DNA of 42,235 nt from a virus. Both the position numbers and the translations under genes were made by a program. The stretch is taken from the UHGV virus genome UHGV-1993760. The stretch is one strand, 5' to 3'. The notes beneath the pieces are model-generated. The model searched no databases. It had not been told where the DNA came from and saw nothing but the letters and a program-made list of their open reading frames with translations. Below are positions 25,328 to 25,528 of this stretch, piece by piece (within the stretch, counting starts at the first letter, position 1; the number at the start of each line of letters is the position of its first letter).

Positions 25328-25464
25328 CGTGACTTTTCCTTTTAGTGGGTGAGCCTCCGCCCGGGGGTGACCAGCCCACAGAGAAAGTCACACTGACCAT
25401 CCCGTAAGCTCACCCCTGAAAGGCTCTGTGGTTTTTGATGTGCGCCGGGCGTGGCGCGGATATG

Positions 25465-25528
25465 AAAAAGGCCCGCCGTAGCGAGCCATGAAAAAAATGA
25501 ATAAAAAAAACCGCCTGGTGCGGCGGTT
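25465..25528 (-). terminator. tandem rho-independent terminators downstream of the tRNA cluster (candidate tR'-like)
   Basis: Hairpin ggcccgc-cgta-gcgagcc (25470-25487) and hairpin ccgcc-tggtgc-ggcgg (25511-25526), each followed on the minus strand by a U-run (plus-strand A-runs at 25465-25469 and 25503-25510). Confidence 0.6.

Follow-up and report, generated by a model that had tools for sequence, protein, structure and literature searches.

A conserved structured leader predicted to mask the ribosome-binding site of a TerB/TciA-like moron gene in lambdoid prophages

Why does the short interval in front of a TerB-like gene of a lambdoid prophage carry interleaved inverted repeats? The question is raised by the viral genome UHGV-1993760, whose full length of 42,235 nucleotides (nt) is called the window here. 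The window resembles an E. coli lambdoid prophage, and E. coli strain 08-00022 is identical to it across a 261-nt query made of the terminators and the leader discussed below. On the minus strand, in 5' to 3' order, there are an AraC-family open reading frame (ORF), four tRNAs, a spacer, two terminator-like hairpins (T1 and T2), the leader, and a TerB-like ORF (Table 1). A sequence-only reading of this locus had taken the hairpins for a Q-antiterminated terminator, tR', and the repeats for part of a regulatory leader. The comparison of related prophages reported here leads to a different emphasis. The segment is probably a translational control leader, which switches between open and closed folds and forms the front end of a mobile TerB/TciA-TciB moron cassette.

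The two interleaved 8-bp inverted repeats (A:A' and B:B') are present exactly where the sequence-only reading had placed them, and both are perfect 8-mers. A third perfect 8-mer, K, crosses both of them. Of 20,000 shuffles of the 118-nt leader that preserved dinucleotides, 8.3% contained one or more 8-bp inverted repeats and 2.3% contained two or more, while an interleaved pair of any kind turned up in 0.07%. The structure as first read included both stems correctly but was incomplete, since B:B' is the core of a longer helix, K is an additional long-range helix, and local alternatives exist for several of the strands.

The longer helix, denoted aSD:SD and 17 bp in extent, includes the Shine-Dalgarno sequence (SD). 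In it the anti-SD strand (aSD) pairs with GGCUCACCC[A]CUAAAAGG, a duplex of 16 pairs interrupted by a bulge and by a C.A mismatch, with an energy of -23.2 kcal/mol. The conserved pairing joins CCUUU...GGGUGAGC to GCUCACCC...AAAGG, which would sequester the SD. K brings the loop and 3' arm of a local hairpin (H) together with the spacer between SD and AUG, reaching position -2. A:A', aSD:SD, and K cross one another, which is the strand topology of an H-type or complex pseudoknot, and each shows double-sided changes beyond those of shuffled and slid controls. In 12 of 16 representatives aSD:SD is part of the minimum free energy (MFE) fold of the full-length leader, and most lineages have a predicted ground state whose helices occlude the SD.

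E. coli genomes, IMG/VR, GTDB genomes, and metagenomes yielded about 205 copies of the leader, 102 of them unique. By sequence these copies form about seven lineages: the main type, L113, L097, L151, L243, L251, and L252. Two alignments were used, a plain MAFFT alignment and a structure-guided one in which divergent rows were placed by hand and padded with N for counting. Hand placement was needed because sequence conservation dominates the covariance model, whose realignment (R1) left the divergent lineages misaligned. In the MAFFT alignment 91% of cells are paired, compared with 36-49% when the strands are slid, and 10 pairs show double-sided changes, a number that none of 500 shuffles equalled. 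In the structure-guided alignment 96.6% of cells are paired and 17 pairs are double-sided, compared with 2.3 in shuffles and at most five in slid controls. RNAalifold gave only a weak, mixed consensus (-13 kcal/mol) on the MAFFT alignment, as crossing helices cannot be represented by it; it still exposed the CUUU:AAAG extension of aSD:SD. Covariation across related prophages, a check suggested with the sequence-only reading, was seen in both stems, which keep their pairing through double-sided changes in other lineages. The comparative evidence indicates that the interleaved stems are real RNA helices under selection.

Individual helices are maintained with quite different sequences. A:A' is found as CCGCAGA:UCUGCGG in the L113 type, CCACAA:UUGUGG in the L097 type and L252, CUGAGAA:UUCUCAG in L151, CAGAGAG:CUCUCUG in L243, and UCAGAG:CUCUGA in L251. 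The B:B' core is replaced by GGAGUGAACC:GGUUCACUC in L151 and by UGAGCGAGUC:GGCUCGCUCA in L252. Elsewhere in aSD:SD, A47-U127 becomes G-C in the E2865 type, L151 lacks both mismatch partners, and in the L097 type the SD (GAGAG) and the anti-SD (CUUUU) are altered jointly. K occurs as UUCGUC:GACGAA, AUUACGUC:GACGUAAU, UGUCC:GGACA, and UGUCU:AGACA; 86.4% of its cells are paired (33-52% when slid) and seven of its eight pairs are double-sided. P0, the hairpin at the 5' end, is kept with other sequences in L097, L150, L151, L243, and L251. L243, L251, and L252 were fetched after the model had been formed. They keep A:A', aSD:SD, and M (described below) with different sequences, and their MFE folds include the SD-sequestering helix. 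One pairing in the MFE fold of the window, J:A', was dropped because the L107 and L113 types do not preserve it.

The masking strands also have other partners. The two arms of H can pair with each other, but each has an alternative: the SD-AUG spacer for the 3' arm, and for the 5' arm a more distal strand, with which it forms the helix M. In M, G68:C98 becomes C:G in L112, and L252 has a 9-bp helix of unrelated sequence. The aSD strand has a decoy partner, C', in the hypervariable segment L3. The aSD:C' pairing is complementary in 87% of cells (33-58% when slid), with coupled changes at columns 47/127/107 (A-U-U, G-C-C, and A-U-C) and 49/105. From the alignment, the support for aSD:C' is this conserved complementarity together with two coupled sites. 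G.U pairs outnumber A.C mismatches in H (43:3), M (62:8), and aSD:C' (68:29), indicating that these structures belong to the sense-strand RNA. An unusual trait, judging by the sequences compared, is the conservation of all three crossing helices along with their decoys.

MFE folding of a growing transcript predicts an order among these pairings. A:A' appears first, aSD:C' and H once C' has been made, and aSD:SD and M once the SD strand has been made. When the transcript reaches A', A:A' is the MFE helix in six of nine lineages tested. In the rod formed by aSD:SD and M, the K 5' and A' strands are 16 contiguous nt in the apical loop, complementary to both flanks of the rod with linkers of 0-1 nt. 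This geometry fits a three-way-junction pseudoknot that replaces M, or else sequential intermediates.

Several points weigh against a leader that switches in this manner. In the window type the fold with aSD:SD is 3.6 kcal/mol less stable than the ground state, which has aSD:C', and the SD is free in the ground state predicted for this type and for L003. Structures with A:A' alone are 8-33 kcal/mol above the MFE in nested folding, in which crossing helices cannot be scored. A:A' and K would therefore be either pseudoknotted or transient, and A:A' may be an early folding intermediate instead of a coexisting helix. K is weak, being short and AU-rich, in L251 and L252, and the covariation of aSD:C' does not exceed that of column shuffles (51/1000). 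The pair counts are inflated because the structure guided the manual alignment of the divergent rows. There are just about seven independent lineages, and their independence is blurred by phage recombination, as in the recombinant L133. Strong conservation may also be explained in part by recent recombinational spread of a linker segment.

The following mechanism would accommodate these observations. The cassette would open with its own terminator T2, T1 being derived from the neighbouring module, followed by the structured leader of about 135 nt. In the closed fold the aSD strand would pair with the SD region and the 3' half of H with the SD-AUG spacer, while A:A' would abut both, so that the ribosome-binding site would be shut. 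In the open fold C' would capture the aSD strand and the 5' arm of H would capture its 3' arm. Since each masking strand has a local partner that is transcribed earlier, nascent RNA could fold open first and closed later. Such a folding timer would let ribosomes load only on young transcripts, made by Q-modified RNA polymerase that reads through T1 and T2. Alternatively, the switch might be thrown by a trigger such as a nuclease, a protein, a small RNA, or a ligand. In the lysogen T1 and T2 would keep the cassette and the lysis genes silent. A more ambitious form of this proposal, which we consider rather unlikely, is that A:A', aSD:SD, and K together form a three-way-junction pseudoknot burying the whole ribosome-binding site, with C' and H as the competing open fold. 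The leader would then represent an undescribed class of phage sensor or timer RNA, which would act like a riboswitch or through a programmed folding pathway and time TerB/TciA synthesis relative to lysis.

Table 1. Positions of the terminators, leader elements, and neighbouring genes in the window
Feature	Position	Strand	Sequence or content	Pairing, energy, or match
T1, intrinsic-terminator-like hairpin and U8	25528-25501 (hairpin 25528-25509)	minus	AACCGCC-GCACCA-GGCGGUU	-12.4 kcal/mol
T2, intrinsic-terminator-like hairpin and U5	25487-25465 (hairpin 25487-25470)	minus	GGCUCGC-UACG-GCGGGCC	-14.5 kcal/mol
Whole conserved structured leader (5' untranslated region of TerB-like gene)	25460-25328	minus	about 135 nt	covariance-model match 145.6 bits
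P0, 5'-terminal hairpin	25457-25442	minus	GCGCC-ACGCCC-GGCGC	-10.1 kcal/mol; 98.7% paired; 4 of 5 pairs double-sided
A, 5' strand of A:A'	25431-25424	minus	CCACAGAG	96.8% paired; 4 pairs double-sided
aSD strand (includes B)	25423-25407	minus	CCUUUCAGGGGUGAGCU	partner 25355-25338; 97.1% paired; 5 pairs double-sided
B, 5' strand of B:B'	25415-25408	minus	GGGUGAGC	partner 25354-25347
M, 5' arm of H with 3' strand	25399-25394 with 25373-25368	minus	3' strand UGGUCA	89.3% paired; 4 pairs double-sided
H, local hairpin	25398-25386	minus	GGUC-AGUGU-GACU	91.9% paired; 4 pairs double-sided
K, 5' strand	25391-25384	minus	GUGACUUU	partner 25336-25329
A', 3' strand of A:A'	25383-25376	minus	CUCUGUGG	same counts as A
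L3, hypervariable segment	25373-25361	minus	most variable part of leader; holds M 3' strand and C'	
C', decoy	25370-25361	minus	UCACCCCCGG	complementary to aSD strand; duplex -20.0 kcal/mol in window
SD strand (includes B' and most of the SD AAGGA, 25341-25337)	25355-25338	minus	GGCUCACCCACUAAAAGG	pairs with aSD strand
B', 3' strand of B:B'	25354-25347	minus	GCUCACCC	partner 25415-25408
K, 3' strand (SD-AUG spacer)	25336-25329	minus	AAAGUCAC	partner 25391-25384; -8.2 kcal/mol
Q-like antiterminator gene	30788-30354	minus	TATAAT box just downstream, about 30322-30317	PHROG 79
AraC-family ORF	26844-26131	minus		
Four tRNAs	26104-25795	minus	last is tRNA-Gly, ending at 25795	
TerB/TciA-like gene	24902-25327	minus	141 amino acids; ATG 25327-25325	PF05099 1.2e-7; PHROG 632 ('tellurite resistance') 4e-65
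DUF3927/TciB-like gene	24753-24905	minus	50 amino acids; overlaps TerB stop codon	PF13064 1e-15; PHROG 1470

The leader, which is probably a structured, SD-sequestering translational leader, lies outside every Rfam family. With Rfam 15 at the gathering threshold only tRNAs, C4, and isrK were found in the whole window, and nothing on the leader. At E<=10 there was nothing meaningful on 25328-25460, the best matches being miRNA and frameshift-element noise of at most 15.4 bits, and at E<=1 the divergent leaders L095, L097, L113, and L151 had no match. Weak matches to STnc100, Esr41, sroB, and CyaR were discarded, as they are below threshold and fall on the terminators only. A literature search with sequence strings, tciA/tciB, and TerB combined with prophage, Hfq, or antitermination found no paper describing the leader. 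There is no reading frame on either strand that is conserved across the lineages, whose leader lengths differ by non-multiples of three. An AUG-initiated ORF of 62 amino acids overlapping the TerB start was rejected because it is missing from other lineages. No sigma-70-like promoter was found in the leader, and by inspection there is no sigma-54 site with plausible spacing.

A covariance-model search found a single copy of the leader in the window. Homologues are found in contigs of Escherichia, Citrobacter, Enterobacter, Pseudescherichia, Franconibacter, Pantoea, and Buttiauxella, and in viral and metagenome contigs. The 261-nt query matches 1424 of 5426 complete E. coli genomes, O157:H7 strains included, at a median of two places per genome; this prevalence counts any match to the query. 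TerB homologues elsewhere (P1 and several Erwinia and Rosenbergiella loci) have upstream regions unrelated to the leader. Assemblies labelled Bacillota, Pseudomonas lundensis, Bilophila, and Kocuria (L093, L099, L114, and L115) contain TerB cassettes of the enterobacterial type, and an 'Actinobacillus phage' record (match H1) is 96% identical. These labels are probably due to contamination or mislabelling.

Where two prophages have TerB coding sequences of 62-63% identity and proteins of 44% identity, their leaders are still 81-87% identical. For example, positions 25298-25460 of the window and 2538-2696 of L003 have an 87% identical leader and share the first 10 codons (93% across 30 nt). With proteins only 44% identical, this shared leader and start mark a sharp mosaic boundary inside the TerB ORF. 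L133 (474-603) is a recombinant leader whose 5' half is of the L107 type and 3' half of the L135 type, with an A.C mismatch in A:A'; recombination thus happens inside the leader. ETEC-2265 (L011, 839-1004) has a deletion variant: what is left of the leader is its 5' two-thirds, less the anti-SD core, joined to the terminators directly upstream of the holin. A fossil leader, 75% identical and adjoining a DUF3927 pseudogene, is found in E. coli DA33137 and many other strains (L002, 2498-2646). It occupies a fixed chromosomal site flanked by an aldose epimerase gene on one side and hypT on the other, and no prophage surrounds it.

T1 and T2, the two minus-strand hairpins with U-runs between 25465 and 25528 that had been called terminators, are present as described. 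Both have the sequence of intrinsic (Rho-independent) terminators, a G+C-rich hairpin immediately followed by a U-run; each stem has 7 bp, with five G-C pairs in T1 and six in T2. They do not lie directly downstream of the tRNAs, as had been stated, but 266 nt past the end of tRNA-Gly. In the sequences compared, T1 is part of the upstream tRNA/hairpin module: the T1 segment and the spacer match E. coli genomes separately from the TerB cassette (H52, H61-H63). T2, by the same comparison, is the 5' boundary element of the TerB cassette and travels with it. The conserved block begins at T2 in most of the TerB-carrying prophages compared, and in many of them T2 starts a few bases past the last tRNA. 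A hairpin with a U-run ends 6-7 or 16 nt before P0 in 87 of 100 distinct upstream contexts. Since the stem sequences at this place are highly varied, a terminator appears to be the conserved first element of the cassette.

The terminator tR' is defined by its place immediately downstream of pR' (PMC7547250). It lies no more than a few hundred nt past pR' and the Q gene and ends the short constitutive pR' transcript. T1 and T2 resemble the tR' and StxS-type pR'-proximal terminators described there in being intrinsic, in lying on the late strand, and in that Q-modified RNA polymerase must pass them. Unlike those, they are past the tRNAs, 4.8 kb from the Q-like gene and its TATAAT box, and T2 is part of the TerB cassette. 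The interval contains a DNA methyltransferase gene, two plus-strand genes, a PHROG-331 ORF, the AraC-like ORF, the tRNAs, and other terminator-like hairpins (27321-27308 and 26994-26977). T1 and T2 were therefore rejected as a lambdoid tR' and are regarded as later terminators of the late operon. The tR' arrangement fails with this. The description of the downstream ORF as the first late ORF fails as well; instead of a classical late gene it is a moron of the TerB/TciA-like kind, accompanied by TciB/DUF3927. What survives is the term 'regulatory leader', a fair reading of stems that are selected, by compensatory change, and placed on the ribosome-binding region; the part concerning termination does not survive.

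The cassette itself has the marks of a moron. PHROGs 632 and 1470 carry the 'moron' category, terminators stand on both flanks, and the genes are present or absent among relatives. ETEC-2265 has the same site without the TerB and DUF3927 genes. Phage P1 carries tciA-tciB in a different context, and the TerB-like protein of the window is 86% identical to P1 TciA. A sigma-70-like scan found no promoter belonging to the cassette. Past the TciB-like ORF, more terminator-like hairpins are followed by two holins (from about 24729) and an M15 endolysin. Two or three of these hairpins lie at 24689-24745 on the minus strand, between the DUF3927 stop and the holin start; with T2 on the 5' side, the cassette is bracketed by terminators. 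The slot between tRNAs and lysis genes which it occupies is the position of the Shiga-toxin genes in Stx phages.

Other features of the locus are as follows. The spacer between tRNA-Gly and T1 holds a long, near-perfect hairpin of about 90 nt (25587-25676, minus strand), and the region 25500-25795 has a fold z of -4.7. There is a weak symR-like match in the hairpin region (Rfam, E<=10), and the hairpin may be a small RNA or toxin-antitoxin transcript ending at T1. The tRNA with anticodon CAT at 26029-26104 (minus strand) is called Met by ARAGORN, while RefSeq labels the identical gene tRNA-Ile, the lysidine-modified reading. The plus-strand pair at 27432-29281, a GmrSD_N-like gene (RefSeq 'DUF4236') and a PHROG 3846 gene, is head-on to the late strand, separating the Q/methyltransferase genes from the remainder of that strand, and looks like a defence-gene insertion within the late operon. 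At 34886-35074 (minus strand) an Rfam C4 antisense RNA (82 bits) adjoins isrK (62.7 bits); this is a P1/P22-type antirepressor (immI-like) control region inside a lambdoid prophage.

Other explanations of the conserved block start from its RNA structure. It may be a site for RNase III or another endonuclease, whose cleavage would free the TerB mRNA from the tRNA/terminator transcript and unmask the SD, P0 serving as a 5' stabilising hairpin. A:A' stacked on aSD:SD would make a quasi-continuous conserved duplex, about 25 bp long and interrupted by a bulge and by a mismatch. The junction between A and the aSD strand is 0 nt in most lineages, the position just after a tRNA cluster is where processing is expected, and P0 is conserved at the 5' edge of the block. 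However, no sequence feature marks an RNase III site, the coaxial stacking presupposes that the pseudoknot forms, and conservation of the decoy partners (C', the 5' arm of H, and M) is left unexplained. We regard cleavage as an unlikely explanation on its own; as a trigger it is compatible with the switching leader. Equally improbable in our judgement is a sensor RNA, riboswitch-like or an operator for a protein or small RNA, in which a compact three-way-junction pseudoknot of A:A', aSD:SD, and K is shifted in its stability against the open fold by a ligand, TerB/TciB, a phage protein, or a small RNA. Such a sensor would agree with the abutting of three helices with 0-1 nt linkers, with linkers of constant length and variable sequence, with invariant unpaired nucleotides (e.g., the H loop and a GNGCG motif before the SD strand), and with the near-equal energies of open and closed helices in the window (-20.0 and -23.2 kcal/mol). 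Yet there is no candidate ligand, and the leader is confined to a single phage cassette in Enterobacterales. When M forms, the flanks of the aSD:SD and M rod are out of reach of its apical loop, M being strong in L252, and duplexes of the leader with the C4-like and isrK-like RNAs of the window are no better than shuffles.

The remaining explanations place the function elsewhere. The view that T1 and T2 are a Q-controlled tR' and that the stems modulate termination or antitermination like an attenuator agrees with both being good intrinsic-terminator candidates on the late strand, through which late transcripts must read, presumably with Q-modified polymerase. Beyond the distance to the Q-like gene, it meets the difficulty that the helices cover the SD and spacer instead. 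A transcription attenuator was rejected because no hairpin with a U-run exists within 25460-25328 and the terminators are upstream of the switching helices. Of all the explanations considered this one seems to us extremely unlikely. It is hardly more credible that conservation is at the DNA level, the block being a protein-binding site or a linker for recombination where modules of the mosaic lambdoid phages meet, and its RNA structure incidental. Recombination does occur here: TerB alleles otherwise 62% identical have the leader and the initial 30 nt of the ORF in common, L133 is recombinant, and the deletion and fossil variants (L011 and L002) end inside the leader. A linker would not account for compensatory double changes that preserve pairing in at least six helices, for the architecture shared by L151, L243, L251, and L252 despite almost no sequence identity, or for the strand-specific asymmetry of G.U and A.C. 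Also very unlikely is a stable trans-acting small RNA (sRNA), derived from the 5' untranslated region or ending at the terminators, like the prophage sRNAs StxS, AgvB, and the Pas sRNAs, which lie close to the Q-to-lysis region. The leader is highly structured, prophage sRNAs cluster nearby, and PasA/PasC loci have TerB as a marker gene in their vicinity (10.64898/2026.05.13.724894). That preprint mentions TerB merely as a neighbour gene, and the Pas genes are elsewhere, flanking esterase and holin genes (10.64898/2026.05.13.724894). The conserved block has no 3' terminator and runs directly into the SD and AUG, and the Rfam matches to sRNAs, as noted above, fall on the terminators.

Several known systems resemble the switching leader in part. 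In the maturation-protein gene of MS2 and Qbeta, translation depends on delayed folding: an upstream complement pairs with the SD over a long distance, and a kinetic trap delays this pairing. In the leader, likewise, a complementary strand about 80 nt upstream is predicted to close the SD at equilibrium, and earlier local pairings could delay the closure. The leader differs from them in belonging to a DNA-phage moron, in having three crossing long-range helices and not a cloverleaf, and in showing no sequence relationship. Another example is the hok family of mRNAs, with their fbi, tac, and ucb/dcb elements, for which a folding pathway was deduced from coupled covariations. The leader similarly has mutually exclusive helices, each kept by covariation, one position with two partners (47/127/107), and predicted metastable folds of the nascent RNA. 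Its gene, however, is of the TerB family and does not encode a membrane toxin, and there is neither sequence similarity nor an Rfam match.

Among lambdoid mRNAs, lambda cIII (Rfam Lambda_thermo) and the lambda N leader with its RNase III site offer a choice of structures at the ribosome-binding site or cleavage of an SD-occluding helix, and the N leader and T7 early mRNAs are models for unmasking by RNase III. Genes and sequences differ, there is no Lambda_thermo match, and a helix of -23 kcal/mol, as in the leader, is much more stable than a simple thermometer would allow. An RNA thermometer of the ROSE, fourU, or cIII-like kind was accordingly rejected, the 16-bp closing helix having no Rfam thermometer match. 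The preQ1-II, SAM-II, and SAM-V riboswitches and the T4 gene 32 operator also have interleaved helices, the 3' strand of the second helix holding or abutting the SD. They are compact (<80 nt) with established ligand or protein binding, whereas the second helix of the leader has 17 bp and its loops are long. The order of strands (helix 1 5', helix 2 5', small hairpin, helix 1 3', variable segment, helix 2 3') is, superficially, that of ribozymes like the one of hepatitis delta virus (HDV), a nested double pseudoknot with helices P1 to P4. Such a ribozyme was rejected. Helix A starts with C-G and lacks the 5' G.U of helix 1, the H loop lacks CC for P1.1, there is no conserved hairpin in L3 corresponding to P4, helix 2 has 17 bp and includes the SD, and no HDV-family match was found in Rfam at E<=10.

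The leader is a candidate for a new RNA-database family, which would improve prophage annotation. It is also a compact natural case of mutually exclusive helices that are all kept by covariation, and is suited to work on co-transcriptional folding. If it proves ordinary, it is still a clear example of SD masking in a phage moron. If the sensor or timer interpretation is true, about one in four complete E. coli genomes would carry such an RNA, often more than once, as counted with the query that includes the terminators. In either case the leader provides a handle on how and when accessory proteins of the TerB/TciA type are made during prophage induction.

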